A stretch of DNA of 64,000 nt from Bryobacteraceae bacterium (GCA_026129905.1 JAHCHE010000013.1:101475-165474); one strand, 5' to 3'; shown: positions 27,055-56,921, numbered from the stretch's first letter. Numbers and translations are program-made. The notes: generated by a model not told the origin, from the sequence alone.

Positions 27055-27064
27055 ATTGCACCTC

Positions 27065-36365: not shown

Positions 36366-37112
36366 TCAAGCTGACGTTCTCTCCGGCGCGGGAAAACGCG
36401 GCTCGATGATAGTCTTCTCGAACGCAAAGCACCCTAACTGATGCGGCGCGTCTTCCGATTCCGCCTGCTCCCAATCGACGCGCCGGCCTGTCGCCCAGAC
36501 CGGACCACTGAAAAGCCGCCACATCTCCCGCCGCTTCAGACGGGCGCCAAGACGTTGCCACTGCTCAATCTCCCTAGCGGAATGCGAGCGGCAGATATAC
36601 GGCAAGTCCTGGCCGTAGAGCGCGTCGGTTCGTTTGTAGACGTTTGGGCAGTGCTCGCGATGATTGTAAGGCGTGGTGATGATCAGCAGCCCTCCGGGCG
36701 CAAGCAGGGCCAGCATGTTGCGCACCGCGTTCTCATGCTCGACGATATGCTCGATCACGCTGATGCATGTCACTGCGTCGAATGGGCCCCCGAACTCGCT
36801 GGGTTCGGTGATGTCTACGTCCAGGACGGTCCAGTGACGGTTCACGATCTGGTTGCGCCAGTAGTCACGCACATTGTCAATCGCGGTCACGATAAAGCCA
36901 CAGTTGCGCAAGAGGTGCGGCCACGCCGTAGTGCCGGTTCCGACGTCCAGCACGGTTTTCGGACGTTCCGCTGCGAGACAGTCGAGCGCAAAGCCGTATT
37001 CTATCGGTCGCTCGTTATGATGGGTGAAAGTCTGCCTGCGGTATTCCATCGAACAGAGTCGACGGATGTACCAGTTACCGGTCTGCCTCGCCAGCGCTTT
37101 CAGTGGGTTCAT
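36366..37112 (-). CDS. Class I SAM-dependent methyltransferase
   Basis: Motif I 'VLDVGTGTTAW' and motif II/III 'FDAVTCISVIEHI...LLAPGGLLIITTP'. Confidence 0.7.
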   Translation of the reverse strand: MNPLKALARQTGNWYIRRLCSMEYRRQTFTHHNERPIEYGFALDCLAAERPKTVLDVGTGTTAWPHLLRNCGFIVTAIDNVRDYWRNQIVNRHWTVLDVDITEPSEFGGPFDAVTCISVIEHIVEHENAVRNMLALLAPGGLLIITTPYNHREHCPNVYKRTDALYGQDLPYICRSHSAREIEQWQRLGARLKRREMWRLFSGPVWATGRRVDWEQAESEDAPHQLGCFAFEKTIIEPRFPAPERTSA

Positions 37113-37481
37113 ATATCGTAGCGGGCTGCAAGGAAGAGTGCACAGCCTTTTCCCTCCGCCTCTGGCGAACCGGGAACAACCGCGCTTTCCAGGCGTCCGC
37201 CCGGGTCGACAGCCGACGGCGAACCGTTCGCCGTGCGCCGCAGTTCATCATACCGCACGGCGCGCCCGAGCCGCTGGCGTGCGCACGCTTCGTGAACGCC
37301 TCTCCGGCTGGACCGATCTCGGCTCACTCTATCGCGTCGCCTCCGCGGGGAGACGAGCGCTGCTCCAAATCGGCCCTTCGTTCGGATGTCGTGCGCGTGT
37401 TCGCCGCGGCCAAGTTCCATTCCGACGCATCGCAGGCTCGGACAGAAAAAGGAACTTCGCCGCTTCTGCTTCGGTGTGATG

Positions 37482-40169: not shown

Positions 40170-40179
40170 AACTGCTCCC

Positions 40180-41430: not shown

Positions 41431-41482
41431 GACACCCTCTTTCTTACCCGCAACATGCAGCCGAATCGGACCGAGCCGGCGG

Positions 41483-43489
41483 CTAGAACATCAGGACCAC
41501 TTCGTACGCCCCGCCTTGCGAAACCGCCGAGTACACCACTCCCACGAGCCCGCTCGAAGGCTTAGTCGCGCCGGCGTCCCGGCAGTTCCCCGGCGTCGAA
41601 TTGCTGACCGCGACATAGCGCCCTGGCGTTGGCGGACTGTCGAACACGCACAGCGCCCGGCCGCGTATCGCGATGCGCGGCGATCCGGATGTCCCGCATG
41701 CCCCGGCGCATATCCCGAGCAGGTCGCCGCTGGAAGCGGGCGCTCGCACCGCTTTTACCGGGTCGCCGTTTGTCCACGACACCAGTTTGTTCAGCGTCGT
41801 CCCCGTCGCCGTGTCGTTTGCCACCGAGAAATCGAGATACTTGGTCCCCAGTCCCAGTTGATTGTTGCCGCTGAAGTTGTTGTCGTCGCCCTGGCATCCT
41901 ACGTACGAGCAGTCGACTTCCCATCGCATGTTCGGACTCGTCTTCGTGATCACGATCCCCGCTCCTGCCTGCGCGACGTACTCGTTCGTCAGCGTCGAAT
42001 TCGCGCTCGCGACCACGTACTCCGCATCGATCGGCCCGCCGCCACCGCCGCCGCTGCCTCCGTCGTTTCCGTCGCCCTGCAAAATCCACGTCCCCCCTTC
42101 ACAGGCGTACAGCCGCCGCCCCGAGAGAGCATTCGTGTTCAGGAACACTTCGCCCGTCACGCACGAGCCCGGCAGTCCCGCTCCACTCGGTATGCCGAGT
42201 TTGCCGCCGCCCAGATCGATCTTCCCGGTGTGGGCAATCGTGCTCCCGCTGACAGACGTCCCCGTTACTCCGCCCAGCACCCCGGAACTGTTGTACTGAA
42301 GTTGCCCGCTCGCGCCGCCCGGCGCCCCGCCGGTGCCGGTTCCGCAGGCGCCCCACGTCGCATCGCCCTTCAGACACTTGGATGCGTCGCCCGCCGCCGG
42401 CACCGGTACCGCGCCCGTTTGCCCTCCGCTGCCCTGGTCACCCGTCATCGCAGGCAGTTGAGCGCGGCTGATCTTCACAGCGGCGTCCAGCCCGGCGTAC
42501 CCCGAAGCCTGGTTTTTGCGCGATAGCGCCTCGTAGACGCCGCTGAGGTCCGGCATCCAACCGGCGGCGAGTTTACCGCTGGCATCCGCTTTGGGTATCG
42601 CGTTAGCCCCGGGCGTTCCTGTCGCCACCTCGTCTCCGCCTCCGTGTCGATGCCTCGATCCGTGATTCTCCGCCGCGAAACCCACATGGCCGGAATTGGC
42701 GTAATCCAGATTGGTCAGTTGCGAATGGTCCATCGTTCCGCCGCCCGCGCCTCCGCTCCCCTGAAGCCGCGAGATCATGATCCGCCCCGCAGTGGCCTTC
42801 GACCAGGTAACCGTAACGTCCCCGGTCGATTTCCCTATCTCAACCGAAGCCGGCGAGATCCGGTTCCACTTCGCCCCGCCATCCGATTGCGCAAATACCT
42901 CTACGTTCGCTCCCAATCCATGCGTGGTCCCCGCGATCGTCCAGGGGTTCGACGCCCCCAGGAATTGTTGGATGTAGGGCGCCGGAGAAGCTCCGCCGCA
43001 GTCGCCCCACGCGCCGTTCCCTTTGAGACACCTTTCGGCGTCGCCCGCTCCGGGGGCCGGCACCGCTCCGCTCTGTCCTCCCGCGCCGTCGTCGCCGGTC
43101 ATCTCCGGAAGCCAGTTCCGGTCCAGTTTGCCGTCGCTCTTTGCCTTCGGAATCACGTTGGCGCCCGCCGTGGCGCTCGCCACCTCGTCGACGCCGCCGT
43201 GCTTATGCGCCGCTGCGTGCAACTCCGCGCTGTTAACCCGTGTCCACGAGTTCACCGCCGTGCAAAGGTAGAGGTTTTGTCCTGCGCTGGCGTCGCTCTT
43301 GAAGAATGCTTGCCCGATCGAGCAAGTCCCCGGAAGCGTCGTTCCGACGGTAAACGGTTTCGTCGCCGCCGCGCTGCCAAAATCAACGTTCCGGCCCTGG
43401 GCCTTGAGGTCCACCCGTGTTTCGCTGAAACTGGGCGCCGCCATGGCCAGAACCAGCAGCGCGCCGCGCATAGGTCCGTGAACAATCAT
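41483..43489 (-). CDS. Secreted repeat protein with duplicated HxHGG-DEVA / CLKGxGxWGxCG modules
   Basis: Signal peptide. Two copies of '...H.HGG.DEVA..T.GAN.IPKA...GKL...W.P...GD.G.GGQ.GAVP.P.AGDA..CLKG...WG.CG'. Two copies of 'G(T/S)C..G..F....A.(A/S)G..LY.C'. Confidence 0.7.
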   Translation of the reverse strand: MIVHGPMRGALLVLAMAAPSFSETRVDLKAQGRNVDFGSAAATKPFTVGTTLPGTCSIGQAFFKSDASAGQNLYLCTAVNSWTRVNSAELHAAAHKHGGVDEVASATAGANVIPKAKSDGKLDRNWLPEMTGDDGAGGQSGAVPAPGAGDAERCLKGNGAWGDCGGASPAPYIQQFLGASNPWTIAGTTHGLGANVEVFAQSDGGAKWNRISPASVEIGKSTGDVTVTWSKATAGRIMISRLQGSGGAGGGTMDHSQLTNLDYANSGHVGFAAENHGSRHRHGGGDEVATGTPGANAIPKADASGKLAAGWMPDLSGVYEALSRKNQASGYAGLDAAVKISRAQLPAMTGDQGSGGQTGAVPVPAAGDASKCLKGDATWGACGTGTGGAPGGASGQLQYNSSGVLGGVTGTSVSGSTIAHTGKIDLGGGKLGIPSGAGLPGSCVTGEVFLNTNALSGRRLYACEGGTWILQGDGNDGGSGGGGGGPIDAEYVVASANSTLTNEYVAQAGAGIVITKTSPNMRWEVDCSYVGCQGDDNNFSGNNQLGLGTKYLDFSVANDTATGTTLNKLVSWTNGDPVKAVRAPASSGDLLGICAGACGTSGSPRIAIRGRALCVFDSPPTPGRYVAVSNSTPGNCRDAGATKPSSGLVGVVYSAVSQGGAYEVVLMF

Positions 43490-43829
43490 GTCGTTTTTCT
43501 TCCTTAAGCAAACAAATCGGGACGAAATATGGCCCCATTTATCTCCATTTTAACATGGCCGCGCGAAATGTTCGGCTGTATCTGGTTGATTCTAAAGGAA
43601 TATATTGGTGGAACCGATAGGCCGACCGCCGTCCCCTTCCGCCCAGCGACGGCTGGCTTCGCCTTTGCGGCGGTTTGACGCGGCGGGCGAACTTATCTTA
43701 CGCTCAAAAGAGAATGTGAGTTGCGCCCCAGTCCCGGTGCTTCCCCTTGTTTTGCGCGGGAGGCGACCCCGGCGCAGGTTTCCCGTCGCGCGGGGCGGCG
43801 ACGCTCGGACATGAAGGGGAGGAGGACTC

Positions 43830-45284
43830 TTGCCCGGCCCTGCTGCGACAACCCCAATCTGGCAGCGGTTCACCCGGCCGGCTGGCCGTGGGGAGGCGCC
43901 CGTCCCTGCGGCGGTTCCGCCGGCGCCTGCGTCTGCTCCGGTCGAGGCCGTACCCTTCAGCCTCTTTCACAAAGCCGGCTTCTTCTCTCTGCTCATCTTC
44001 GTACCCATCGTCTTCAGCCGAATCAACGAGTTCCTCCGCATCCCCAATCTCGTTTTCTCCACCGTCTCCGTCTGCCTCGCCACCAGCATTCTCACCGGCG
44101 CCGCCTATCGCGCCGCCACTTCGCGGCCCGGCAAGCTCCTGCTGTTGTTCACCGTTTGCATCGTCGCTTCCGTTCCGTTCAGCGTTTGGCGAGGCGGCAG
44201 CTATGAGGTCTTAGCCAAAGACTGGGTAATATCCCTCCTGGTCTTCTTCGCCATAGCGGGATCGGTCCACACCTTCGAGCAATGCCGCAAAGCGATGTAT
44301 GCGATGGCGCTCGGCGGGATGCTCATCCTGCTCCTTAGCGTCCGCTTCGGCTCCAGCGCGGCCGGACGCTTCGCCTTCATGTGGGGCACTCTCGGCAATC
44401 CCAACGATTTCGCCACCTATCTCATCATGGGCCTGCCGTTCTGCCTTTTCGTCTTTCTCAACGATACCCGCCTGCCGTTGCGCGCGGTCGCCGCTCTGTC
44501 CGGCCTCGGCATTCTCGTCTACGGCCTTAGGTCCGGTTCGCGCGGCGGCATGGTCGCTCTTGTCGGACTTGTCTTTGTTCTCTTTCTGAAACTCTCCCTG
44601 GCGGACAAATTCAAGCTCCTCGCCGCCGGCGCCCTCGTGTTCCCCGTCGTCCTCGCCCTCGTCCCGCGCGACACCCTCCAGCGGCTCGTCACGTTTGGAA
44701 TCTCCAGCGAGGAGGATCGTGAAGACAACCGTCAGGTCGGTCTTGCCACCTCCTCCTACAATGCCCGCCGCCGCCTCATGCAGGACGCCATCAAGGTCAC
44801 CCTCCAGAATCCCGTGGTCGGCGTCGGCGCCGGCCAGTTTCAGGTCGCCGCCACCCGGTTGGCGGAAGATCGCGGCATCGTCGCCATGTGGCGCGAAACC
44901 CATAACGGTTATCTGCAGGTTTCCAGCGAGTGCGGCATTCCTGCCCTGCTGATCTACCTCGGCTTATTCGCCTATTGCTTTCGTACCCTTACCGAGCTTC
45001 GCAAAGCCGCCGCTCCGCATCCGGCCCTCGCCACCATATCCAAGATGGCAATGTGCCTGTTCATGGCTACGGCGATTTTCGCCGTCGTCAGTCTCTTCGG
45101 CAGCTACGGCTATACCATGCTCCTGCCCGTTCTGTGCGCGTTCACGTATGTCCTTCAAACTACTGCGGAGCCCGTCATTCGCGCTGCGTTGGCGTCGTCT
45201 CCCCCCGCACCGAATGTCCCTTCAGGTCCACTGCCGCCGCGAGCCCGTCCATTGATGCCTCGATTGCCCCTAATGAGGTTCTGA
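43830..45284 (+). CDS. O-antigen ligase / Wzy-like polymerase family membrane protein (TTG start with GGAGG SD)
   Basis: Polytopic; O-antigen-ligase-like region 'AALSGLGILVYGLRSGSRGGMVALVGLVFVLFL...NPVVGVGAGQFQV...HNGYLQV'. Confidence 0.7.
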   Translation: MPGPAATTPIWQRFTRPAGRGEAPVPAAVPPAPASAPVEAVPFSLFHKAGFFSLLIFVPIVFSRINEFLRIPNLVFSTVSVCLATSILTGAAYRAATSRPGKLLLLFTVCIVASVPFSVWRGGSYEVLAKDWVISLLVFFAIAGSVHTFEQCRKAMYAMALGGMLILLLSVRFGSSAAGRFAFMWGTLGNPNDFATYLIMGLPFCLFVFLNDTRLPLRAVAALSGLGILVYGLRSGSRGGMVALVGLVFVLFLKLSLADKFKLLAAGALVFPVVLALVPRDTLQRLVTFGISSEEDREDNRQVGLATSSYNARRRLMQDAIKVTLQNPVVGVGAGQFQVAATRLAEDRGIVAMWRETHNGYLQVSSECGIPALLIYLGLFAYCFRTLTELRKAAAPHPALATISKMAMCLFMATAIFAVVSLFGSYGYTMLLPVLCAFTYVLQTTAEPVIRAALASSPPAPNVPSGPLPPRARPLMPRLPLMRF

Positions 45285-45285
45285 T

Positions 45286-47223
45286 ATGTGTGGAATTGCT
45301 GGCTTCGTCAAGGGTGAAGGCGACTCCGGCGCCGCCCGCGTCATTGCTCGCATGACGGATGTGATCCGCCACCGCGGGCCGGACGATAGCGGAACCTATG
45401 AGGACGCGTGGGTTGCGCTAGGCCATCGCCGCCTGAGTATCATCGACCTTGCCGCCGGCCACCAGCCGATGGAAAACGAGGATGGTTCCGCCTGGATCGT
45501 TTTCAACGGCGAGATCTTCAACCATGCCGACCTTCGCGCTGAACTGGAGCGCCTCGGCCATCGCTTTCGCACCCGCTGCGATACCGAAACCATCCTGCAT
45601 GCCTACGAAGAGTACGGCCCCGCATGCCTCGATCGCTTGCGCGGCATGTTCGCCTTCGCCGTCTGGGACCGCGACGCCCGCACGCTGTTCTGCGCCCGCG
45701 ACCGGCTCGGAAAGAAGCCCCTCTATTACGTCTGGGACGGACGCCGCTTCGCGTTCGCCTCGGAGATCAAGGCCCTCCTGCAGCACCCCGACCTCGCCGC
45801 TTCACTTGACGCCTCCGTCCTCCCCGAGTACCTGAGCCTCGGCTACTCTTGCGACGATCGGACTCTGTTTCGCGGCATCCGTAAGTTGATGCCGGGACAT
45901 TACCTCATCCTCCGCTGCTCCGCGGAAGGCCCTTCCCTCGAAACCAGCGCTTACTGGGACCTCCCGTTTCCGGATCCGCCCGAGCTCCGCTCGGACGAGT
46001 CCTGGATCGAAGAGTGCCGCCTGCGCCTCGAAGACGCCGTCAGCACCCGCCTGATGAGCGATGTTCCCCTCGGCGTTTTCCTGAGCGGCGGCGTGGATTC
46101 CAGCGCTATCACCGCCGTCATGAAGCGCATCGTTGCGGGTCCTGTCAAGTCCTTCTCCGTGGGCTACGCCGAAACGGCTTACAGCGAGTTGTCCTACGCC
46201 CGCCGCGTGGCGCAACATCTCGGCGTCGACTATCACGAAGTCCTCATCTCCCGGGACGATTTCTTCCGCGCCCTCCCCAGCCTCATCTGGCACGAGGATG
46301 AGCCGATCGTCTGGCCCTCCAGCGTCTCTCTCTACTACGTGTCCAGGCTCGCCGCCGAACAAGTGAAGGTCGTCCTTACCGGCGAAGGCGGAGACGAGTT
46401 GTTCGCAGGCTATGCTCGTTACCGTCGCCACGCCTTGAATGAACGGTTGCGGCCCGCCTTTCGCCTCCTTCCGTCCGCGCTCAGGAACCGGATCCGAAAC
46501 TGGATCGTTGCCTCGAACCTCCTTTCGGCCGGCCTCCGCCGAAAACTCGGCCACACCCTGCTCGGTCGCGAAGATAACCTCGAATCCCTCTACCTCGACA
46601 ACTTCTACTCGGCTTTCCCCCGCAACGGCCGCGAGCGTCTCCTCCAAAACGGCGCCGCCCCCCCTTACAACAACTTCCTCGCCTACTGGAGCCGCGAACC
46701 CCGGCGCTCCCTTCTCGAGCGAATGTTGTACGCCGACCAGAAAACCTATCTGGTCGAACTCCTGATGAAGCAGGACCAGATGAGCATGGCGACCTCCATT
46801 GAGTCCCGCGTCCCGCTCCTTGATCATCTGTTCGTTGAGTTCGCCGCTCGGGTCCCCCAGAGCCTCAAACTCCGTAACGGCGGCGGCAAGCGCATTCTCA
46901 AGAAGGCCGTCGAAGATCTCCTTCCTCAAGACATCCTCTACCGAAAGAAGATGGGATTCCCCACCCCCTTGCGCGCGTGGCTCCAGCATCCCGACGCGGG
47001 CTGGGTCGCGTCCACCCTCCTCCGTCCCGACAGCCTCCTCGGCGATTATCTCGACTTGAACGCCGTACGTTCGCTCCTCGAACGCCACCAGAGCGGCGCC
47101 GAGGACGCCACCGACTCCATCTGGCGCCTCCTCAACCTGCAGCTTTGGGGCGACGTCTTCCTCAGCGACGGCGTGGCGCCGCAGTTCGAACAGCGTTTCG
47201 CCCCTCTGCCGGTTTTCTTGTAG
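45286..47223 (+). CDS. asnB: Asparagine synthase (glutamine-hydrolysing), exosortase-locus-associated amidotransferase
   Basis: Starts 'MCGIAGF' (Cys2 nucleophile); 'LSGGVDSSAI' PP-loop; 645 aa. Confidence 0.9.
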   Translation: MCGIAGFVKGEGDSGAARVIARMTDVIRHRGPDDSGTYEDAWVALGHRRLSIIDLAAGHQPMENEDGSAWIVFNGEIFNHADLRAELERLGHRFRTRCDTETILHAYEEYGPACLDRLRGMFAFAVWDRDARTLFCARDRLGKKPLYYVWDGRRFAFASEIKALLQHPDLAASLDASVLPEYLSLGYSCDDRTLFRGIRKLMPGHYLILRCSAEGPSLETSAYWDLPFPDPPELRSDESWIEECRLRLEDAVSTRLMSDVPLGVFLSGGVDSSAITAVMKRIVAGPVKSFSVGYAETAYSELSYARRVAQHLGVDYHEVLISRDDFFRALPSLIWHEDEPIVWPSSVSLYYVSRLAAEQVKVVLTGEGGDELFAGYARYRRHALNERLRPAFRLLPSALRNRIRNWIVASNLLSAGLRRKLGHTLLGREDNLESLYLDNFYSAFPRNGRERLLQNGAAPPYNNFLAYWSREPRRSLLERMLYADQKTYLVELLMKQDQMSMATSIESRVPLLDHLFVEFAARVPQSLKLRNGGGKRILKKAVEDLLPQDILYRKKMGFPTPLRAWLQHPDAGWVASTLLRPDSLLGDYLDLNAVRSLLERHQSGAEDATDSIWRLLNLQLWGDVFLSDGVAPQFEQRFAPLPVFL

Positions 47224-47225
47224 GG

Positions 47226-48341
47226 ATGGCTGCCATCGTCTTCTGGTCGTCGCTCGCCGTCGTTCTCTACGTCTATCTCGCCTACCCAGCCCTCCTCAGG
47301 ATTCTGGCCGTCTTCTTTCGTCGCCCGGTCGCCAAAGCCCCCATCCTTCCATCCGTCTCCCTTGTCATTCCCGCCTATAACGAACAGCGCGTCATCGAAG
47401 CCAAGCTCCGCAACGTTCTTTCGGTCGACTACCCAGCGGAAAAGCTCGAAATAGTTGTCGTCTCGGACGGCTCCACCGACGCGACCAATGCCATCGTCGA
47501 AAAATACGCCTCCGCCGGCCGCGTCCGCCTGTTCGCCTTCGCTCAAAACCGCGGCAAAATCGCGGCGCTCAACGACGCGTTTCCCCATCTGCGCGGAGAA
47601 ATCGCCGCCCTTTCCGACGCCTCCAGCATGCTCGCTCCCGATGCCTTGCGCGTTCTCGTCTCCAGCTTCGCCGACCCCTCCGTCGGGGCGGTCAGCGGCC
47701 TCTACCGCGTTCGCCGCCAGCGCGAGGCCGAACTCGGCGAGCAGGAAGGCTTCTACTGGAGTTACGAAAGCTGGCTCAAAACATTGGAGGCGGAACTCGA
47801 CTCCATCCTCGGCGCCCATGGCTCGCTCTACGCCATCCGCACGAAACTCTATCCGTTTCCCGAGCCCGGCGCGATCAACGACGACTACATCATCCCCGTC
47901 CGGATCATCCAAAAGGGATACCGCGCCGTGTATGACACCCGCGCCCTCGCCTACGAAGAAGCGCTCGAGATGACCGGTTTCAAACGTCGCATCCGGATCA
48001 TGACCGGCAATTTCGAGCAGCTCAGCGAGCTTCGTCCTCTAATCTGGCACCCGCGCTGGCTGCCTCTATTCTTCTTTCTGTCTCATAAGGCCGGCCGGCT
48101 GGCTGTCCCCCTGGCCATGCTGGCCCTGTTCGCTTCCAACATCTTCCTCCTGGCCCAGCCGTTCTACCTCGCCGCGTGGATCGCGCAATTGCTTTTCTAC
48201 GGCGTCGTCGTCGTAGGAGCTCTATGGCCCGTGAACTCCCGGCTGCTGCGGCTGCCCTACTACTTCTGCATGATCAACGCGGCGGCCTTCTTCGGGCTTT
48301 ACTACGCTTTGATCGCCCGCCGTAAAATGGCCTGGAAGTAA
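47226..48341 (+). CDS. Family 2 glycosyltransferase (membrane-anchored)
   Basis: 'SLVIPAYNEQRVIEAKL...EIVVVSDGSTD' DxD-type GT2 motifs with C-terminal TM segments. ATG 47226 lies 2 nt after the asnB stop. Confidence 0.85.
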   Translation: MAAIVFWSSLAVVLYVYLAYPALLRILAVFFRRPVAKAPILPSVSLVIPAYNEQRVIEAKLRNVLSVDYPAEKLEIVVVSDGSTDATNAIVEKYASAGRVRLFAFAQNRGKIAALNDAFPHLRGEIAALSDASSMLAPDALRVLVSSFADPSVGAVSGLYRVRRQREAELGEQEGFYWSYESWLKTLEAELDSILGAHGSLYAIRTKLYPFPEPGAINDDYIIPVRIIQKGYRAVYDTRALAYEEALEMTGFKRRIRIMTGNFEQLSELRPLIWHPRWLPLFFFLSHKAGRLAVPLAMLALFASNIFLLAQPFYLAAWIAQLLFYGVVVVGALWPVNSRLLRLPYYFCMINAAAFFGLYYALIARRKMAWK

Positions 48342-48407
48342 GCCGTTATTCGGTTTTTTTCCGAACTGGTTTGCTGTCTTCGCCGTCGTGTGGTCTACTT
48401 GAATTGA

Positions 48408-49307
48408 GTGTCCATTGTCGTCGGCCGTCCCGTTCGGGACGATGCTCCACCTCGTACCGGGGCCCCGTTTGACTGGCCCGTCGTCGCGTGGTTCGCCATC
48501 CTGTTGATCGCCGCCTACGCTCAGGTCCTTTACCGTCTGCTTCAGCAGTGGTGGGCGGACCCCGATATGGGTCACGGCTTCTTTGTCCCCATCATTGCCG
48601 CCGTCATCGCCTGGGGCAGGCGCGATCGACTCCGATCCCTTGCACTGTCCACGAACTGGTGGGGACTGGCGCTCGTCGTGTGGGCGTCCGTCCAGCTCCT
48701 CATAGGCCTTTTGGGCGCCGAACTCTTTCTGACCCGTACCGCATTCCTGATCGCCCTCATCGGCGCCGTGCTCTTTTTGGGTGGCGCTGGACTCGTGCGC
48801 TCGTTGGCTTTCCCGCTGTTCCTGCTGTTCTTCATGGTTCCCATTCCCAAGGTGATCTTCAATCAGGTCGCCCTGCCCCTCCAGTTGCTTGCCAGCAACC
48901 TTGCTGAGGCCTTTCTAGGGGCCATCGGCGTGCCCGTCTTGCGCGAGGGCAATATCCTCGAACTCGCCAGCCAGCGCCTGAACGTCGTCGAAGCGTGCAG
49001 CGGCATTCGCTCGCTGCTGTCGCTTTCGTTTCTCGCCCTCGTCTACGCTTACTTCTTCGATTCCAAACCCTGGATGCGCGCCGTCCTCCTCCTCGCCAGC
49101 GCTCCCATCGCCATCCTCGCCAACGCAGGCCGCGTTGCCATCACCGGCATCCTCAGCGAACGCAATGCCGAACTCGCCGACGGCTTCTTCCACGCCGCCG
49201 AAGGCTGGGTCATTTTCGTTATCTCGCTCGCCGCCCTGTTCCTGGCGCACCGGCTGATTGACGTTTCCATCAACGGAGTCTCGCGTCTTGTTCGCCGTCC
49301 CCGATAG
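48408..49307 (+). CDS. Exosortase (EpsH/XrtA-like)
   Basis: 'WWADPDMGHGFFVPIIAAVIAWGRRDRL...' followed by 8 TM helices. Conserved Cys/Arg region 'ASQRLNVVEACSGIRSLLS...ANAGRVAITGIL'. Confidence 0.85.
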   Translation: MSIVVGRPVRDDAPPRTGAPFDWPVVAWFAILLIAAYAQVLYRLLQQWWADPDMGHGFFVPIIAAVIAWGRRDRLRSLALSTNWWGLALVVWASVQLLIGLLGAELFLTRTAFLIALIGAVLFLGGAGLVRSLAFPLFLLFFMVPIPKVIFNQVALPLQLLASNLAEAFLGAIGVPVLREGNILELASQRLNVVEACSGIRSLLSLSFLALVYAYFFDSKPWMRAVLLLASAPIAILANAGRVAITGILSERNAELADGFFHAAEGWVIFVISLAALFLAHRLIDVSINGVSRLVRRPR

Positions 49308-49959
49308 ATTTCGCTTTCTGAACTGGCGTCCCGCCCGCGTGTTGACCCTCGCGTTGGTCGCCCACATCGTCCTTGTGAACGCCTTTTCCCGAAAGGAGAC
49401 TCCGCCCCCGCCTCCTCCTCTTCGCGAGTTCCCCGCCAGTCTGGATGACTGGCGAATGGTGCACGAGGGAACCGTCGTTCGCGAAGTCCAGGATGTCCTT
49501 CGGGCCGATGAAACCCTTACGCGGACGTACTTCGGACGCGACGGCCGGGCGGCCTCCCTCTTTGTCGCCTTCTTCCGATCTCAGCGCGCCGGCGTCAACC
49601 CGCACTCTCCCAAGAACTGCCTGCCGGGCTCGGGCTGGCTTCCGCTGGAATCCGGGATCGTCTCCATTCCCTTGCCCGGCCGCTCCGTTCCGCTCCAGGC
49701 GAATCGTTACCTCATCGCCAAGGGAGACAGCAAGAGCGCCGTCCTCTATTGGTACCAGACGCGCGATCGAACGATTGCCAGCGAGTACGTCGCCCGCTTC
49801 TACCTCGTGCTGGACGCCATCCGCTCCAACCGCACCGACACCTCCCTGATCCGGATCTCCGTCCCTGTCGTCGGCGAAAACGTCGACGGCGCGTTCGACG
49901 CCGCGGTCGCCTTTGCGCAGATCGCCTTCGAGCCCCTCTGCCTGATCCTCCCGTCCTGA
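49258..49959 (+). CDS. EpsI-family exosortase-associated protein (start uncertain; overlaps the exosortase 3' end)
   Basis: N-terminal TM (ARVLTLALVAHIVLV) then a periplasmic domain. The exosortase-EpsI adjacency is characteristic. Confidence 0.7.
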   Translation: MTFPSTESRVLFAVPDRFRFLNWRPARVLTLALVAHIVLVNAFSRKETPPPPPPLREFPASLDDWRMVHEGTVVREVQDVLRADETLTRTYFGRDGRAASLFVAFFRSQRAGVNPHSPKNCLPGSGWLPLESGIVSIPLPGRSVPLQANRYLIAKGDSKSAVLYWYQTRDRTIASEYVARFYLVLDAIRSNRTDTSLIRISVPVVGENVDGAFDAAVAFAQIAFEPLCLILPS

Positions 49960-50034
49960 GGACATCCCCTCGGCGTCTCCAGTTCCTATGGGAGAGAAAT
50001 GCCGCCATCCTCCAACTACTCCCGTGGGGAGTCC

Positions 50035-50499
50035 ATGAGCGCCTGCCAGACCCAACACTTCGGCGTGATCGAGTACCTCCCCGATCAGGTGGTTACGTTC
50101 CCCGTCGGGCTGCCGGCCTTTGAAGACGAGCGTCAGTTCGTGCTGATCGAGCAGTCGGCCACCATCCCCGTGATCTTTCTTCAGAGCCTCGCCCGGCCAG
50201 ACCTGGCCTTTATCACCCTTCCTATGGCCGTCGTCGAACCTTCTTATCGGTTGAGCGTGTCGCCCGAAGACCTCGAGCTCCTTCAGCTTCCGCCCGACAT
50301 CCCGGCGACCTCCCCAGAGAACGTTCTCTGCCTCGCCATCGTCACCGTGCCCGAGGCCGGGCCGCCCACCGCGAACCTCATGGCGCCTGTCGTCATCTGT
50401 CGCGAGAGCCGTTGCGCCGTGCAGGCGATCCAGTCCGATTCGGCGTACTCTCACCAGCACGTCCTGCCGGCGACCTCCCCGGAGGAACGATGCTCGTAA
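50035..50499 (+). CDS. fliW: Flagellar assembly factor FliW
   Basis: 'MSACQTQHFGVIEYLPDQVVTFPVGLPAFEDERQFVLIEQ...PVIFLQSLARPDLAFITLP...TANLMAPVVI' is the FliW signature. It overlaps the csrA start. Confidence 0.8.
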   Translation: MSACQTQHFGVIEYLPDQVVTFPVGLPAFEDERQFVLIEQSATIPVIFLQSLARPDLAFITLPMAVVEPSYRLSVSPEDLELLQLPPDIPATSPENVLCLAIVTVPEAGPPTANLMAPVVICRESRCAVQAIQSDSAYSHQHVLPATSPEERCS

Positions 50500-50720
50500 T
50501 TCGCAGAAAGCCCGGCGAATCCATCCTCATCGGCGAGGACATCGAGATCCAGGTCATCGATATCTCTCCTTCCCGCGTCCGCATCGGCATCTCCGCGCCC
50601 TCCAGCGTGCTCATCCTCCGCAAAGAGATCCAGTTGGCACAGCGCCAAAACCTCGCCGCGGCCCTCCGCTTCTCCCCTGACGCCGTCCGCTCCGTCCTCT
50701 CCCGTTTCCCCGCCCGCTGA
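50490..50720 (+). CDS. csrA: Carbon storage regulator CsrA (with C-terminal extension, FliW-partner type)
   Basis: 'MLVIRRKPGESILIGEDIEIQVIDISPSRVRIGISAPSSVLILRKEI' with a GGAGG SD at -9. Confidence 0.85.
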   Translation: MLVIRRKPGESILIGEDIEIQVIDISPSRVRIGISAPSSVLILRKEIQLAQRQNLAAALRFSPDAVRSVLSRFPAR

Positions 50721-50846
50721 CCGCCCGGCGCCCCAAAACAATCCGTTCATACTTCATCCCTAGTCACCGATAAGCCCACTGTGAGCAGTTAGCGGCTTAC
50801 GCCGCAGGCCGGGAAGGATCCCAGGCCCCACATTTCAGGAGAGAAC

Positions 50847-53800
50847 ATGGCTTACAGTATCAACACCAATGTCACATCCTTGCAGGCACAGGATTACCTG
50901 CGGATCAGCTCCGAGTTTCAGAGCAAGACCATCAACCGAGTCACTTCGGGCTTACGCATCATCAGCTCCGGTGACGACGCGGCCGGTCTCGCGATCGCCA
51001 ACAGCCTTCGCTCAGACCGCGCCGTGATTACCCAGGGCGTTCGCAACGCCAACGACGGCTTGTCCACCTTGCAGACCATCGACGGCGGCATCAACAACAT
51101 CTCTCAGTTGCTCGATCGCGCCCGGACCCTCGCCGCCCAGTCGGCCTCGGGTACGTTCTCCGGCAACCGGAACGTGCTGAACAGCGAGTTCGAGAGCGTG
51201 ATCCTGGAAATCGATCGCCAGGCCCAGGCGATCGGCCTCGATCAGGGCGGCAGCTTCGCCAAGAACCTGACCGTATTCATCGGCGGCGGCCGCAGCAATT
51301 CCGGCGTCTCCGAGATTGCCAACGGCTCCCTCTCCGTCGATCTGTCGCAATCCACGGTCGATTCCAAGAGCCTTGGACTCAAAGGCGTGCAGGCGCTCGG
51401 AGCCCCGGGCACCGATATCGGCACGGGCTCCGTTTCCACCAGCGTCGGGCAGATTCTCGCCGATCTGTCCAATCTCAATGACCTCACCACGGCCAACTAC
51501 ACGGTCTTCAAGTTCTACGGACCCGGCTTTGGCGATGGCGACGGCGTCGCGATCTCCGTCAATACGCAGGGCGTCACCGACACCGACACCCTCGTGACCG
51601 CCATCAACGCCGCCATTGAATCGGCTGGAAACGGTGGCTCCACCGCGGCTACGGCCTTTAAGAACGCCAATATTGTGGCCTCCGTCAACACCGACAGCGC
51701 CGGCCGCAAGCAGCTTGCCTTCTCTTCCAGCAGCACCGCCTTCCAGGTCAAAGCCGGCGACAAGATGGCGAACGCCCTCATGGGCAACTTCGGAGTCGGC
51801 GCCACGGGCGCGGATATGTCCACCACGGTGACCGCTGACGTAGCCTCTGCCGCAGGCTCTGCCGCCTTTGGCGCCGCCGGCGCCGGCGACATCGTCTTCC
51901 GTTTCCAGGGCGCCGGCATGACCAGTCCACTGGAATTGACCGTCAGCGTCGCGGCTGCGACCACGGTGGCCGAGGCGATCGCCGACCTGAGCACCCAGGT
52001 GGTAAACAACGCCACCCTGAAGGCCGCCGGGATCAGTCTCACCAGCGCTTCCGCCGGATCCGCTCTCGAATTCACCAGCACTCGTAGCGAACAATTCGAC
52101 GTGCAGGTCAGTAACGACAAACTGAACCATCTTGGATTCGGCTCGTTCCTGGCCGGCGTGAACGCCGCCTTCGACTACGCAAGCATCACCGCTTCCGCCA
52201 ACTACTCCACGGCCTCGGTCGGCTCGGCTACGTTCGAAGTCTCCATCAACGGCGGGGCTTCAAACACAAACGCGATGGTCGTTAACCTCGCGGGAGGCGA
52301 CGCCACCGCCGCCACCGTCAGCGGCACGGATACCGCCTTGACGGTCGATACCACCGGCGGCGCCAACCTGTTCCGACTCGCCGTCGACGGCTCGGTATAT
52401 GCCATCGCGCTGACGGCCAATGCCACCGCCAGCAAGATTACGTTGGCCAACGACATCAACACCGCGGTCGGCGCAACCATCGCCAGCGTCGGCGCCGACG
52501 GCAAACTCGTCCTCGCTTCCACGACCAAGGGCGCCGCCTCCACCATCCAGATCCTCGCTGGCACCGCCAATGCTGTGCTTGGCTTCACGGAAGGGGACGT
52601 CGTCACGGGCGCTTCCCGGTCCGGAGCCAGCGTGGCCGATGCCCTCAATGCGGCCATCGCCGCCGACGCCGAATTGAGCGCCGCGGGCCTGGTGGCGGAC
52701 TTCGGCGTCACCGCCGCCGGCAAAATCAGCATCAACTCCAGCAACGGGACCTACTTCCGCCTGAATACGTTCGGCGACGTGGCGGCCGCCACCGCCATGG
52801 GCACAAAGGCTGCCACCTATGACACCACCGGCGGCAACAACGTGCTGACCATCGCTGTGGACGGCGGCTTGGCCCAAACCGTGACCCTCACCGCCGGCGC
52901 CGCCCGCACGGCCGCCCAGATCGTGCAGGATATCAACGACGCCGACATCGGCGTCACCGCCTCGGTCGTGACGCACGGCGGCGTGAATTTCGTCCAGGTC
53001 GTCTCCGACACCACTGGCGCCGCTTCCTCCCTCGAGTTCGGTGGCACGGCGCGCACCATAATTGGCTTCGCCGCAACCGCCTATGACGGCACGGAAGCCA
53101 ATGCCGGCTATGGCGTGGCAGGCCAGACGTTCGCGGGCAATGTTGCCAGCGCGGCGCCGGCCACCGCCGCTCAGTTCAATGCGGGCGGCTCTCAGGCCAC
53201 CGCGGCGCTTGCTTTCCAGCCCCTGGCCTACGGCAACGACGATCAGACCATCACCATCTCCGCCAACGACAACGCCGGCGTGCAGCAGTCCAAGACGATC
53301 GTCTTGAAAAACGACGGCGCCAGCGATCGCTATGGCCGGAACATCGATCAGGTGCTCGACAAAATCAACGCCGACCTCCAACAGACCAACAACCAGACCT
53401 TGCAGAAGATCGTGGCCGTCAAGGTCAACGACGGCGGCGTGGAGAAGATCCAGTTCCTGAGCTCGCTCGGCGCCTTCCAGGTCTCCATCGGGCAGACCCC
53501 GGACGGCAACGGCATCGGCGCTCAGGGCAGCACGCAGTCGTCGCAGGCCTTGGACGGCGGCAGCGTCGCGGCCATCGATACCCAGGCCGGCGGTGAAGCC
53601 GCCGTCGCCGCGCTCGCCAACGCCGTGGCCGCCCTCGGCGAGGCTCAGGCCGTCGTCGGTAAGGGCCAGAACCGCTTTAACTTCGCCGTCAACCTCGCCC
53701 AGACCCAGCTCAACAACCTGGCGGCGTCGGAATCCCGCATCCGCGACGCCGACCTGGCGCTGGAAGCGGCGAACCTGACCAAAGCCCAGATCATGCAACA

Positions 53801-53870
53801 GGCCGGCATCGCCGCCTTGGCCCAGGCCAATTCGGCGCCGCAGACCGTCCTCAGCCTGCTCCGCGGGTAA
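50847..53870 (+). CDS. Flagellin, giant (1007 aa) with very long Ala/Gly/Thr/Ser-rich variable region
   Basis: Conserved D0/D1 N-terminus (MAYSINTNVTSLQAQDYLRISSEFQSKTINRVTSGLRIISSGDDAAGLAIANSL...) and C-terminus (...QNRFNFAVNLAQTQLNNLAASESRIRDADLALEAANLTKAQIMQQAGIAALAQANSAPQTVLSLLRG). About 700 aa of insert lie between them. Confidence 0.9.
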   Translation: MAYSINTNVTSLQAQDYLRISSEFQSKTINRVTSGLRIISSGDDAAGLAIANSLRSDRAVITQGVRNANDGLSTLQTIDGGINNISQLLDRARTLAAQSASGTFSGNRNVLNSEFESVILEIDRQAQAIGLDQGGSFAKNLTVFIGGGRSNSGVSEIANGSLSVDLSQSTVDSKSLGLKGVQALGAPGTDIGTGSVSTSVGQILADLSNLNDLTTANYTVFKFYGPGFGDGDGVAISVNTQGVTDTDTLVTAINAAIESAGNGGSTAATAFKNANIVASVNTDSAGRKQLAFSSSSTAFQVKAGDKMANALMGNFGVGATGADMSTTVTADVASAAGSAAFGAAGAGDIVFRFQGAGMTSPLELTVSVAAATTVAEAIADLSTQVVNNATLKAAGISLTSASAGSALEFTSTRSEQFDVQVSNDKLNHLGFGSFLAGVNAAFDYASITASANYSTASVGSATFEVSINGGASNTNAMVVNLAGGDATAATVSGTDTALTVDTTGGANLFRLAVDGSVYAIALTANATASKITLANDINTAVGATIASVGADGKLVLASTTKGAASTIQILAGTANAVLGFTEGDVVTGASRSGASVADALNAAIAADAELSAAGLVADFGVTAAGKISINSSNGTYFRLNTFGDVAAATAMGTKAATYDTTGGNNVLTIAVDGGLAQTVTLTAGAARTAAQIVQDINDADIGVTASVVTHGGVNFVQVVSDTTGAASSLEFGGTARTIIGFAATAYDGTEANAGYGVAGQTFAGNVASAAPATAAQFNAGGSQATAALAFQPLAYGNDDQTITISANDNAGVQQSKTIVLKNDGASDRYGRNIDQVLDKINADLQQTNNQTLQKIVAVKVNDGGVEKIQFLSSLGAFQVSIGQTPDGNGIGAQGSTQSSQALDGGSVAAIDTQAGGEAAVAALANAVAALGEAQAVVGKGQNRFNFAVNLAQTQLNNLAASESRIRDADLALEAANLTKAQIMQQAGIAALAQANSAPQTVLSLLRG

Positions 53871-53906
53871 CCTCGGTTCCCCGGAGTAACAGTCGGCAGC
53901 AGTAGC

Positions 53907-53957
53907 GAGCCGCGGCCATCGTAGACGACGATCCGCGATGGCTGCGGCTCTCTTGTT
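53907..53957 (+). terminator. Putative intrinsic terminator after flagellin
   Basis: 15-bp inverted repeat gagccgcggccatcg / cgatggctgcggctc (one G-U) followed by tcttgtt. Confidence 0.45.
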
Positions 53958-54034
53958 CCAACCAGCCGGCCGCGCCCTCGGGGCGCGCCCCTGGCAGCAG
54001 CGTCCATCCAAGCGGAGGTACTGAAAGTCTCATC

Positions 54035-55990
54035 ATGTCCGTCATACCGGAGCTGTTGGATTGTGCGGTCGCGCACCACAAGGCCGGCCGTTTCGCCGAA
54101 GCCGAGGGCCTCTACCGCAGAGTTCTGACCATCGAGCCGCGCCACGCCGATTCACACCACCTCCTGGGCCTGCTCGCCGGAGAAGCCGGCAACTACCCCC
54201 TCGCCGTCGCCTGCATCGGCCGCGCGATTCAATTCAAGCCCTGGGAGCCGCTCTACTATCGCAATCTGGGCCTGGCGCTGCATCGGGACCAAAGGTATGA
54301 GCAGGCGATTATCTGCTATTCCAAGGCGATCGAGCTGGAGCCCAACCACGCCGAAACCCTCCTCCGCATGGGCCGCTCCCTCGCCGCCCGCGGCTTGCTC
54401 GACGACGCCATCCAGTTGTTCCTCCATGCCCGGCGCCTTGCGCCTAACGAGCCAAATGCCCACCTCGATCTCGGCCTCGCCTTCGCCCGGACGGGGAAGC
54501 TTGACGAAGCGGCCGCCAGTTTCGGCGAGGCGCTCTGGTTGCGGCCCAACGACCCCCAGGCCGCTTTCGAACTCGGCAACTCCCTCCATATGTTGGATCG
54601 CCTTGTCGAAGCCGAACAGGCATACCGCCGGGTGGTGGCTCTGGAACCCCGGCATCCGGACGCCTGGTTCAACCTCGGCGTGACTCTCTCTCGTCGGAGT
54701 TCCTTCCTCGAAGCCATCGCCGCCTATGAGGCTGCCTTGGAAATCAGGCCATCCCACGCGGCCGCCCATAACAACCTGGCGAACCTCCGCCAGGCCCAGG
54801 GCAAACTCGACGAGGCGATCGCCGGCTACCAGGCGGCGCTCCGGCTGGAGCCGGCCAACCTCGATACCCGTTACAATCTCGGCCTCGCCTTCCAGGAGCG
54901 GTTCCGCTTTGATGAAGCGCTCGACGCCTACGACGATGTCCTCTCGCATCAGCCGGACCACGTCGAGGCCCAGAACAATCGCGCCAATACGCTGCTGGCC
55001 CTGGGACGCCCGCGCGAGGCCGTCGAAGGCTATACCCTCGCCATCCGCCGGCAACCAGATCATCTCGAGGCCAACTTCAACCGGGGCATCGCGCGACTCC
55101 TCCTCGGCAATTTCGCCGAGGGCTGGCAAGGCTACGAGTGGCGCTCCCGCCAAACGAATGCCCCTCGTCGCGACTTTGAGCAGCCACTCTGGGATGGCGA
55201 GCCCCTTACGACCCAGACTCTGCTCGTCCACGCGGAACAGGGCCTCGGCGACGCCATCCAGTTTGTTCGATACCTCCCGCTCGTCAGGGAAAGGTGCGCG
55301 CGCGTCTTTTTCGAATGCCAGCCCCGCCTTGTCCCGCTCTTCGCCGGCCTCTCCTCTATCGATGGCCTGATCGCCCGGGGTTCGCCGCTGCCGGATTTCG
55401 ATTTCCATATCCCCTTGATGAGCTTGCCGCGCGTCTTCGAAACAACGCTGGAGACAATTCCCTCCGATACCCCTTACCTCGCCATCAATCCGGACCTCGT
55501 CGGCTATTGGCGCCGGCGGATTGGTTTCCCGGGGCGCCGCAAGATCGGCCTCGTGTGGGGCGGCAACGCCGGCTTCAAGAATGAGCTGCGCCGCGGCCTG
55601 CCCCTCGAGACGTTCCGGCCCCTGGCCGCCCTCCGCGACGTCGCCCTGTTCAGCCTTCAGCGCGGACCGCAGGCACGTCAGCTCGAAGCTCTCCCCCCCG
55701 GCATGAAGGTCCATCATCTCGAGCCCGAGGAGAATCAGATCACCGATACGGCCGCCATCCTCCACGTTCTCGACCGAGTGATCACCGTCGATACGATGGT
55801 CGCTCACCTCGCCGGCGCCCTGGCCCGGCCGGTCTGGACCTTGCTGTCCTTCGCGCCCGACTGGCGATGGCTTCTCGATCGTCCCGACAGCCCCTGGTAC
55901 CCCACCATGCGCCTGTTCCGCCAGCCGCGCGAGGGGGACTGGGAGACCGTTGTGCATCGGGTTGCCGCGGAACTCAAAACCGGCTGTTGA
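54035..55990 (+). CDS. TPR-repeat protein with C-terminal GT9 (heptosyltransferase-fold) glycosyltransferase domain; FlmG-like candidate flagellin glycosyltransferase
   Basis: About 10 TPR units (AYRRVLTIEPRHADSHHLLG..., AIICYSKAIELEPNHAET...). Then 'LLVHAEQGLGDAIQFVRYLP...IGLVWGGN...TVDTMVAHLAGALARPVWTLL', typical of GT9 ADP-heptose transferase-like domains. Confidence 0.65.
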   Translation: MSVIPELLDCAVAHHKAGRFAEAEGLYRRVLTIEPRHADSHHLLGLLAGEAGNYPLAVACIGRAIQFKPWEPLYYRNLGLALHRDQRYEQAIICYSKAIELEPNHAETLLRMGRSLAARGLLDDAIQLFLHARRLAPNEPNAHLDLGLAFARTGKLDEAAASFGEALWLRPNDPQAAFELGNSLHMLDRLVEAEQAYRRVVALEPRHPDAWFNLGVTLSRRSSFLEAIAAYEAALEIRPSHAAAHNNLANLRQAQGKLDEAIAGYQAALRLEPANLDTRYNLGLAFQERFRFDEALDAYDDVLSHQPDHVEAQNNRANTLLALGRPREAVEGYTLAIRRQPDHLEANFNRGIARLLLGNFAEGWQGYEWRSRQTNAPRRDFEQPLWDGEPLTTQTLLVHAEQGLGDAIQFVRYLPLVRERCARVFFECQPRLVPLFAGLSSIDGLIARGSPLPDFDFHIPLMSLPRVFETTLETIPSDTPYLAINPDLVGYWRRRIGFPGRRKIGLVWGGNAGFKNELRRGLPLETFRPLAALRDVALFSLQRGPQARQLEALPPGMKVHHLEPEENQITDTAAILHVLDRVITVDTMVAHLAGALARPVWTLLSFAPDWRWLLDRPDSPWYPTMRLFRQPREGDWETVVHRVAAELKTGC

Positions 55991-56030
55991 CGCCGCTGCG
56001 CGTCCCTGCGGTATGCTCGTCAGGCAAGCT

Positions 56031-56921
56031 ATGCCTTACCGCTTGGTCTCCATCGTCGCCCTGCTCGCCCTCGCCGCTCACGCCGCCCCGATCGGCCCCA
56101 TCCCGCTCTGGAAAGGTCCGGCCCCCGGAGATACGGCTGGCATCGGTCCCGAGCACGATACCACCACCGACAAGGACGCCCTTGTCGCCGGCAAACGCGT
56201 CAGCCGCATCACCAACATCGCCAATCCCACCATCACCGTTTACCCTACCGCGAAAGCCGCGCCGAAAGGCCCCGCCGTGCTTGTGTTTCCCGGCGGAGGC
56301 TACCGCATCCTCGCCTGGGATCTCGAGGGGACCGAAATTTGCGAGTGGCTCAACTCCGTCGGCGTCACCTGCGTTCTCGTGAAATACCGTGTGCCGGCCC
56401 GCGAAGGCTTACCCCGCTGGGCCCCGCCCTTGCAGGACGCTCAGCGCGCTCTTGGAACCGTTCGCGCCCGCGCCTCGGAGTGGGGCATCGATCCCGTCCG
56501 CGTCGGCGTACTTGGCTTCTCCGCCGGAGCCCACCTGTCGGCCATGCTCAGCAACAGCTTCGACCAGCGCCGCTACCCCCGCGTCGACGCCGCCGACGAC
56601 CTATCCTGCCGCCCCGACTTCGCGGTGCTCGTCTATCCCGGCGGAATCGTCCCCCGCGACTCCGACGCCATGTCGCCCGACTTGCATGTCATTCCCAAAG
56701 CCCCACCCACCTTCATCGTCCAAACGCAGGACGATAACGTGCGCGTCGAGAACAGCCTCGCCTACTACGCCGCCCTCAAGGCGGCCAAGGTCCCGATCGA
56801 GATGCACCTCTACCCGTCCGGAGGACACGGCTACGGATTGCGCCCTTCCCCGCACTCCGTCTCCGCCTGGCCCGCCCGCGTGGAAGACTGGATGCGCTCG
56901 CTCGGCATCGTCGGAAAATAG
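56031..56921 (+). CDS. Secreted alpha/beta-hydrolase esterase (acetyl-esterase/lipase-like)
   Basis: Signal peptide (MPYRLVSIVALLALAAHA). 'LVFPGGGY' oxyanion-type motif, 'GFSAGAHL' nucleophile elbow, and C-terminal 'GGHGYG'. Confidence 0.75.
   Translation: MPYRLVSIVALLALAAHAAPIGPIPLWKGPAPGDTAGIGPEHDTTTDKDALVAGKRVSRITNIANPTITVYPTAKAAPKGPAVLVFPGGGYRILAWDLEGTEICEWLNSVGVTCVLVKYRVPAREGLPRWAPPLQDAQRALGTVRARASEWGIDPVRVGVLGFSAGAHLSAMLSNSFDQRRYPRVDAADDLSCRPDFAVLVYPGGIVPRDSDAMSPDLHVIPKAPPTFIVQTQDDNVRVENSLAYYAALKAAKVPIEMHLYPSGGHGYGLRPSPHSVSAWPARVEDWMRSLGIVGK

Follow-up and report, generated by a model that had tools for sequence, protein, structure and literature searches.

The four genes considered here lie in one direction at positions 49999-55990 of a 64,000-nucleotide (nt) stretch of DNA from a Bryobacteraceae bacterium (GCA_026129905.1 JAHCHE010000013.1:101475-165474; hereafter the window), which has a high GC content (~64%) and whose flagellin is 100% identical to a protein (P0001) of a Bryobacteraceae metagenome-assembled genome (Acidobacteriota). 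They encode FliW, CsrA, a giant flagellin and a protein that joins tetratricopeptide repeats (TPRs) to a glycosyltransferase (GT) domain, hereafter TPR-GT. An earlier note, made from the sequence alone, had put these four genes at the same places with fliW and csrA overlapping, and library matches bear this out, with an overlap of 10 nt. Taken as a whole, the locus is quite probably a filament-subunit module of an acidobacterial flagellum, in which a Bacillus-type Hag-FliW-CsrA switch is combined with a modular flagellin of 1007 amino acids (aa) and an enzyme of the FlmG class. The genes, and the hairpin that separates the last two of them, are as follows.

49999..50499, plus strand: fliW (Pfam PF02623, E 4.6e-25; NCBIfam FliW models, ~1e-29; PDB 5dmb_A, 7e-15)
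50490..50720, plus strand: csrA, 76 aa with a C-terminal extension (Pfam PF02599, E 2.3e-20)
50847..53870, plus strand: giant flagellin, 1007 aa (Pfam Flagellin_N, PF00669, residues 5-126; Flagellin_C, PF00700, residues 922-1005)
53907..53958, plus strand: terminator-like 16-bp hairpin followed by UCUCUUGUU (predicted fold, -44.1 kcal/mol, z = -3.7)
54035..55990, plus strand: candidate FlmG-class protein glycosyltransferase, 651 aa (11 TPRs, aa 1-372; GT9-like GT-B domain, aa ~373-651)

The likelier start of fliW appears to be the ATG at 50035, behind GGGGAG, and not the one at 49999, because homologue alignments begin at about residue 13 (tblastn matches of homologues start at residues 8-13). 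The start of csrA falls within fliW and has its own Shine-Dalgarno sequence there, GGAGGA, 4 nt upstream of the ATG; this sequence arrangement indicates that fliW and csrA are translationally coupled, as has been described in B. subtilis (PMC6529632). The CsrA protein aligns with B. subtilis CsrA (1t3o, residues 1-69) and keeps the RNA-binding core together with the C-terminal extension that characterises CsrAs under FliW control, and FliW (5dmb_A) and CsrA (5dmb_D) both match the Geobacillus FliW-CsrA complex 5dmb. Related loci were gathered by exact-protein look-ups and one metagenome scan, and their gene order was established by a tblastn census. The order fliW-csrA-flagellin was found in 13 of the 16 acidobacterial-type loci with upstream sequence (L002, L005-L012, L014, L015, L040 and L042), the exceptions being L001, L003 and L041. 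With the order kept in relatives and both proteins matching the same complex, the description of the arrangement as Bacillus-type given in the earlier note stands.

In B. subtilis, FliW is bound by flagellin that is in the cytoplasm, FliW left free inhibits CsrA, and the Shine-Dalgarno sequence of hag is what CsrA occludes (PMC6529632); a FliW-CsrA mechanism acting on flagellin has also been described in C. jejuni (PMC4894983). The window has its gene order fliW-csrA-flagellin in common with the Hag-FliW-CsrA switch of B. subtilis, the closest known system along with FlaA-FliW-CsrA of C. jejuni and FliC-FliW-CsrA of Clostridioides difficile. The likeness to the B. subtilis system extends to the coupling of fliW and csrA, to the C-terminal extension of CsrA, to a leader with one GGA in a hairpin loop and another in the Shine-Dalgarno sequence, and perhaps to the promoter, a putative one of the sigma28/SigD type. 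Unlike that system, the window module belongs to a host of the Acidobacteriota, has a flagellin three times longer, is detached from fliD/fliS, stands beside an exosortase cluster, and is known here from sequence alone. The elements of the flagellin leader are listed below.

50746-50749, plus strand: candidate -35 element TCAT, 16 nt upstream of the -10 element; weak
50766..50773, plus strand: sigma28 (FliA)-type -10 element ACCGATAA (from the sequence; conserved in relatives)
50792..50805, plus strand: leader hairpin 1, GCGGC-UUAC-GCCGC (predicted fold)
50807..50827, plus strand: leader hairpin 2, GGCCGGGA/AGGA/UCCC-A-GGCC, with apex A-AGGA-U (predicted fold; proposed high-affinity CsrA site, BS1 equivalent)
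50836..50843, plus strand: Shine-Dalgarno sequence CAGGAGAG with a second GGA at 50838-50840 (proposed second CsrA site)

The sigma28-like -10 element of the earlier note is present and conserved, but its coordinates were one base off, since caCCGATAA sits at 50765-50773 and not at 50766..50774. The stretch ccgggaaggatcccagg is placed exactly at 50809-50825, within hairpin 2, whose apex GGA occupies 50816-50818, and the second GGA lies 22 nt beyond it; the fold of the whole leader has a z of -4.45. A sigma70 promoter scan of 49800-56200 gave no match. In the window only, these leader features alone are weak evidence: CCGATAA is seen five times in the window against 4.8 expected, that is, without enrichment, and a hairpin with GGA at its apex and 5 bp or more in its stem arises in 10-30% of trials with random composition-matched leaders, a figure from a strict hairpin finder that missed the window's own bulged stem. 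The leader gains its significance because the features are conserved at the same place in orthologous leaders, which share the -10 box, a first hairpin that is GC-rich and variable in sequence (at the position of hairpin 1 in most of them), a second hairpin with apex A(A/G)GGA(U/A), and a Shine-Dalgarno sequence AGGAG(A), found in all close leaders 6-9 nt upstream of the ATG. The box (C/T)CGATAAG(C/G)C stands 75-95 nt ahead of the start codon of flagellin in L001, L003, L005, L006b, L007, L008, L009a/b, L010, L015, L016, L040 and L041. Compared with the sigma28 consensus TAAA-N15-GCCGATAA, the window has only TCAT as its -35 element, and relatives show TCAA, CTAA or TAAG with correct spacing.

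Hairpin 2 is kept in 11 of the 12 close leaders, where its stems vary while the loop is kept: CCGGGA/UCCCGG at most loci, CGGCGGA/UCCGCCG in L009, CCGGAA/UUCCGG in L040 and GAUCGUA/UACGGUC in L042. A covariance model of the leader, built from 12 leaders, matched L040 (E 1.6e-5) and L041 (E 1.1e-4), both fetched later and outside the model, and both matches end at the flagellin ATG; no other site was found with it in the 64-kb window or in 335 kb of loci. In the hairpin 2 stem 86.9% of cells are paired, four of the six pairs show compensatory change, and the covariation score is 0.332 versus 0.194 in shuffles, with 0 of 500 shuffles reaching 0.332, while slid controls of the pair counts all score lower; these figures come from an alignment fitted to the covariance model and are biased upward. 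RNAalifold predicted no structure on a MAFFT alignment of the leaders, because differing loop lengths put the stems out of register. The leader hairpin with AAGGAU and the second GGA in the Shine-Dalgarno sequence, which the earlier note had judged to fit CsrA binding, thus prove to be conserved, with a covarying stem, as far as comparison of the sequences can indicate.

A different view of the leader is that its hairpins are mRNA-stabilising 5' structures, or a device sequestering the start region, with no CsrA operator among them, CsrA being a global regulator for which flagellin is not a dedicated target. The frequency of chance GGA-apex hairpins agrees with that, as do the hairpins of L007 and L041, which have no clean apex GGA, and those of a subfamily (L002, L010, L013 and L037) with a hairpin without GGA and the Shine-Dalgarno sequence AAAGGAUUU. 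So does the ability of the window leader's 5' end (50777-50786, CACUGUGAGC) to pair with codons 2-4 (GCUUACAGU, 50850-50858) in the predicted fold; this pairing was dropped as a functional element, as it is kept in L001 and is partial or absent elsewhere. In contrast, the loop varies far less than the stems, in which the changes are compensatory, the second GGA always lies within the Shine-Dalgarno sequence, and csrA and fliW stand immediately upstream of flagellin in 13 loci. Moreover, the second, tandem flagellin copies with no csrA ahead of them (L006 8880, L008 9981, L009 4121) lack the AAGGAU hairpin, two of them keeping the CGATAAGCC box; the proposed operator is thus confined to the flagellin gene next to csrA, and to judge from the sequences only that flagellin copy seems to be under CsrA control. 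We regard hairpins without an operator role as very unlikely. A weak match of the leader model (L033 4993-5040, minus strand, 13 bits, E 0.34), which is not significant, lies directly upstream of fliD, and may hint that fliD too is a target of CsrA.

The partner-switch reading is thus well supported, and we consider it very probable. On this reading we infer promoter use, CsrA binding and its antagonism by FliW to proceed as follows. Flagellin would be transcribed from the sigma28-type promoter, and a CsrA dimer would bridge the AAGGAU apex of hairpin 2 and the GGA of the Shine-Dalgarno sequence, thereby blocking ribosome binding and translation. When flagellin is exported, free FliW would bind CsrA and translation would resume; when cytoplasmic flagellin builds up, FliW would be titrated and CsrA would stop synthesis. 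FliW and CsrA would be made in fixed proportion because their genes overlap and their translation is coupled.

The flagellin itself has its D0/D1 helices at residues 1-131 and 913-1007, and between them six outer modules, given here in residues of the protein.

aa 214-305: flagellin module R1
aa 343-425: flagellin module R2
aa 504-572: flagellin module R3
aa 590-655: flagellin module R4
aa 662-735: flagellin module R5
aa 796-884: flagellin module R6

The insert had been noted as rich in Ala, Gly, Thr and Ser, which agrees with its composition (A 18%, G 12.5%, T 10.6%, S 9.2%), but that description undersells what structure prediction, the check named in the earlier note, gives for it. An AlphaFold (AF2) model built on a 40-sequence alignment has a predicted local distance difference test score (pLDDT) of 79.6 overall and of ~90 over residues 180-900, and in it the six modules are each beta-beta-alpha-beta-beta-beta. 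Comparison between modules with hhalign relates R3 to R5 at 99.1% (E 5e-19), R2 to R4 at 95%, R1 to R2 at 89% and R1 to R6 at 87%. In the model the insert is therefore a set of six homologous folded modules and not low-complexity sequence. The homology is visible only by profile-profile comparison of alignment slices: self-BLASTP of the flagellin showed no repeats, and Pfam on the insert alone gave nothing meaningful.

Homologues of the flagellin are abundant (2308 of 8000 scored candidates at E <= 1e-10). The best 120 (P0001-P0120) measure 682-1560 aa, those with names being labelled Bryobacteraceae or Acidobacteriota, and their lengths fall into a ladder whose peaks lie close to 790, 910, 1010, 1118, 1235, 1348, 1455 and 1550 aa. 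Hidden Markov models of the six modules count 4-11 modules per protein in this set, and length follows 355 + 109 x n modules with r = 0.994; the scaffold R1-R2-R4-R6 is invariant, and every extra copy is of the R3/R5 type. A profile of R3 and R5 retrieved no more than 279 cluster representatives from 1.84 billion proteins, including flagellins of up to 1783 aa, and in the flagellin P0246 the R3/R5 module coincides with Pfam Flagellin_IN. Further proteins with the module (P0269, P0277, P0308, P0368 and P0284) include some that lack flagellin termini (up to 2684 aa, 8 copies) and one Baseplate_J protein. Its presence in these giant and Baseplate_J proteins may point to an exchange of modules between flagella and the surface proteins of phages or contractile tails; with one module as the query, tblastn against phage genomes gave no match.

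The best PDB folds for the flagellin model are multi-outer-domain flagellins solved by cryo-electron microscopy, from Geovibrio thiophilus (9au6, D2-D5, 792 aa), Azotobacter (9n59), enterohaemorrhagic E. coli H7 (7sn4) and Achromobacter (7sqd) (PMC11532411, PMC8931119), which likewise have outer domains stacked on D0/D1, with TM-scores that are low (0.17-0.32) and core-driven. The Geovibrio D2-D5 domains were called by their authors the largest outer domains solved by cryo-electron microscopy (PMC11532411). Compared with this largest solved set the window flagellin has more, namely six outer modules over ~780 residues, and these are mutually homologous. The giant flagellins of Bermanella marisrubri and Oleibacter marinus (PMC6248924) also exceed 1000 aa, with conserved D0/D1 and a very large insert; unlike them, the window flagellin has an insert of an unrelated family, in which a single module is repeated a variable number of times. 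The phyla that Thomson et al. list in their 2018 survey of giant flagellins (PMC6248924) do not include Acidobacteria.

The module-number series invites a picture of an "accordion" flagellin family in Bryobacteraceae and related Acidobacteriota, in which an IN-motif module of ~109 aa (the R3/R5 type) would be gained and lost in tandem on the fixed R1-R2-R4-R6 scaffold to give 4-11 outer modules, the largest repeat-built flagellar outer layers known, and in which TPR-GTs of the FlmG class would read the modules and lay a lineage-specific glycan coat on them. In this full form we put it forward tentatively and consider it doubtful. The number of modules would set the thickness of the outer layer of the filament and its surface chemistry.

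The flagellin could instead be an orphan, or have a role other than motility, for instance as an adhesin that is secreted or as a fibre of the matrix, in an organism that has no functional flagellum. No further flagellar genes, fliA included, were found in the 64-kb window, the flagellin locus stands beside an exopolysaccharide cluster, and the cultured type strain of Bryobacter is described as non-motile. Against this, the flagellin open reading frame (ORF) is intact and D0/D1 is conserved (the first 130 residues are 81-88% identical to relatives), and relatives of the same family reside in complete flagellar clusters (L041 with FliI/H/G/F/E, FlgB/C, MotAB and FliD; L042 with MotAB; L002 with FliS and FliD). 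A dedicated FliW/CsrA checkpoint, in addition, makes sense only with flagellar type III export. An orphan flagellin is, in our judgement, most improbable. At L001 (5823-6213) the flagellin frame breaks near codon 48 (tblastn segments 5823-5966 and 5968-6213), which looks to be either an assembly error or a pseudogene. At L003 (8985-11098) a flagellin relative of 916 aa is followed by a 369-aa protein without a family and then by a sulfotransferase (PF13469, E 7e-38), a gene content that suggests a different modification of flagellin or glycan in that lineage.

The fourth gene encodes a protein whose match to Glyco_transf_9 is weak yet above threshold (26.0 bits vs a cut-off of 22) and which shows many TPR matches in the sequence scan. 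Its AlphaFold (AF2) model (pLDDT 93.4) comprises 11 TPRs (22 helices) and a two-lobed GT-B domain, and by fold comparison the catalytic fold is GT9-like, so that the GT9 assignment of the earlier note holds and its count of about ten TPRs becomes 11. With this model Foldseek ranks SPINDLY and OGT first; a PDB sequence search with the GT domain gave no relative. OGT and SPINDLY, protein O-glycosyltransferases of GT41 from eukaryotes and bacteria, have the same architecture of a TPR superhelix feeding a GT-B domain and by this likeness offer the best mechanistic analogy for a TPR-guided protein glycosylation; GT41 itself is found in some neighbouring paralogues of L035 and L039.

FlmG of Caulobacter crescentus (CCNA_01524) is the founding member of the FlmG flagellin O-glycosyltransferases (PMC7591256), and its gene was recovered from genome contigs via the published primer NK-74 (PMC7591256). 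The window TPR-GT aligns with it by BLASTP at 26% identity over 504 aa (E 2e-37) and by hhalign at 100% (E 1.8e-44) over FlmG 98-594, from the TPRs through the last residues, and the motifs EQGLGD and PWYP are common to both. On these alignments the window protein is a true homologue of FlmG over both domains, which gives the FlmG architecture recognised in the earlier note a footing in direct homology. The genes also adjoin flagellin genes in both cases, flmG standing next to fljJKL in Caulobacter. The window protein differs from FlmG (596 aa) in its 651 aa, its 11 TPRs and its low identity, and unlike flmG its gene has no pse, leg or flmH-type genes nearby; its closest relatives (~50-64% identity) are uncharacterised proteins of many phyla.

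Two other identities were tried and rejected. The first was a lipopolysaccharide (LPS) heptosyltransferase, kinship with which would, by the earlier note, have refuted its reading; on score this refutation fails: TIGR02193 scores 20-22 bits vs a cut-off of 185 and matches 47 residues only, and unlike WaaC/WaaF (GT9) the window protein is fused to 11 TPRs and stands in a flagellar and not an LPS-core context. The second was the XrtA/PEP-CTERM TPR lipoprotein PrsT (TIGR02917), which scores 133 bits vs a cut-off of 312, in the TPR repeats only.

TPR-GT homologues were found eight times in flagellar filament loci (the window, L001, L033, L041, L006, L035/L036, L037 and Caulobacter). At L001 an ortholog 64% identical to the window protein directly follows a flagellin that is 78% identical; L033 has a split TPR/GT pair (63% identity) after flagellin, facing fliD; L041 has a member of 495 aa after flagellin, and at L006 one of 577 aa adjoins fliD and fliW. 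In L035 (3098-13985), L036 and L037 (1824-15456) six or seven paralogues stand in tandem behind fliW-csrA; their identity to the GT domain of the window protein is 48-57%, some of them have GT41 instead of GT9, and the L037 array is followed by two methyltransferases, a 499-aa flagellin and fliD. From their gene content these arrays after csrA look like an uncharacterised type of flagellin-modification island. As most related giant-flagellin loci lack a TPR-GT while several filament loci carry one, comparison of the loci indicates that the TPR-GT is an accessory that has been recruited recurrently and not a fixed part of the module.

The TPR-GT may nevertheless be a general glycosyltransferase of envelope proteins or polysaccharides, serving for example the adjacent exosortase/PEP-CTERM system, with flagellin as its neighbour by accident and not its substrate. 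An exosortase/PEP-CTERM-type exopolysaccharide cluster (43815-49959) indeed ends only 40 nt upstream of fliW and contains Wzy_C, an asparagine synthase-like (AsnB) protein, a GT2, exosortase EpsH and EpsI/DUF3485. Several further observations weigh on the same side. The GT family has a great many members (7964 of 8000 scored candidates at E <= 1e-5) and includes ~50%-identical proteins from Planctomycetota and from the cyanobacterium Stenomitos, which is not known to bear flagella; the assignment to flagellin therefore rests on context. For the arrays of L038 and L039 the nearest 9 kb contain no flagellar gene, and the L038 array adjoins a PEP-CTERM protein, while nine of the ~14 giant-flagellin loci (L002, L003, L007-L010, L013, L040 and L042) have no TPR-GT within the sequence at hand. 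The strong terminator-like hairpin ahead of the TPR-GT gene, the inner part of which was also picked up by a terminator scan, means that flagellin and TPR-GT need not be co-expressed. What also counts against the main reading is that no pseudaminic or legionaminic acid genes (pse, leg, neuB-like) or other dedicated sugar-nucleotide genes were found in the 64-kb window; the heavy glycosylation suggested in the earlier note thus finds no support there.

In favour of flagellin as the substrate, the ortholog again stands directly after flagellin in L001, L033 and L041 with no exosortase cluster nearby, and three of the five nearest TPR-GT homologues sampled lie in fliW/csrA/fliD/flagellin loci, where, roughly reckoned, far less than 2% of a genome is that close to such genes. 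The end-to-end homology with FlmG, an experimentally proven flagellin transferase, and the partial nature of the PrsT match also speak against an accidental neighbour, which we rate as unlikely. A flagellin glycosyltransferase remains the best available reading of the protein from its sequence and context, and it is probably the right one, held with less assurance than the partner switch. On this reading we infer that flagellin is glycosylated, and with what kind of sugar: the superhelix of 11 TPRs would bind flagellin in the cytoplasm, and there, ahead of export, the GT9-like GT-B domain would attach a sugar from a nucleotide-activated donor to Ser/Thr residues in the outer modules. The sugar used by FlmG enzymes is pseudaminic or legionaminic acid (PMC7591256; bioRxiv 10.1101/2022.03.25.485807), and the GT9 fold would also fit nucleotide sugars other than nonulosonic acids.

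In addition to the exopolysaccharide cluster, the surroundings of the four genes include an esterase and an acyltransferase on their 3' side. Four large ORFs without a Pfam match (611, 895-904, 416-436 and 668 aa) occupy 34470-43489 on the minus strand, the GC content of the window falls to 0.589 at 38-40 kb, and a small helix-turn-helix protein resembling the MqsA antitoxin family (PF15731, E 4e-9) is encoded at 26704-27090.

Each component of the locus is of a known kind, and the locus is a new member in a new phylum. It extends the FliW-CsrA-flagellin checkpoint to the Acidobacteriota, a dominant and poorly cultured soil phylum, with the backing of comparative evidence that includes covariation in the proposed operator hairpin. 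The FlmG class, defined in Caulobacter, now appears as part of a very large family of TPR proteins with a GT9-like domain that is met repeatedly in flagellar filament loci, and its members are concrete candidates for flagellin glycosylation outside Proteobacteria. For the module-number ladder and for the TPR-GT arrays between csrA and flagellin we could not find a description in the literature searched. The copy-number-variable flagellin family is to us the most interesting piece, and its series of 4-11 modules would provide a natural system in which to relate the mass of the outer domains to the mechanics of the filament, to adhesion, and to recognition by phages or the immune system.

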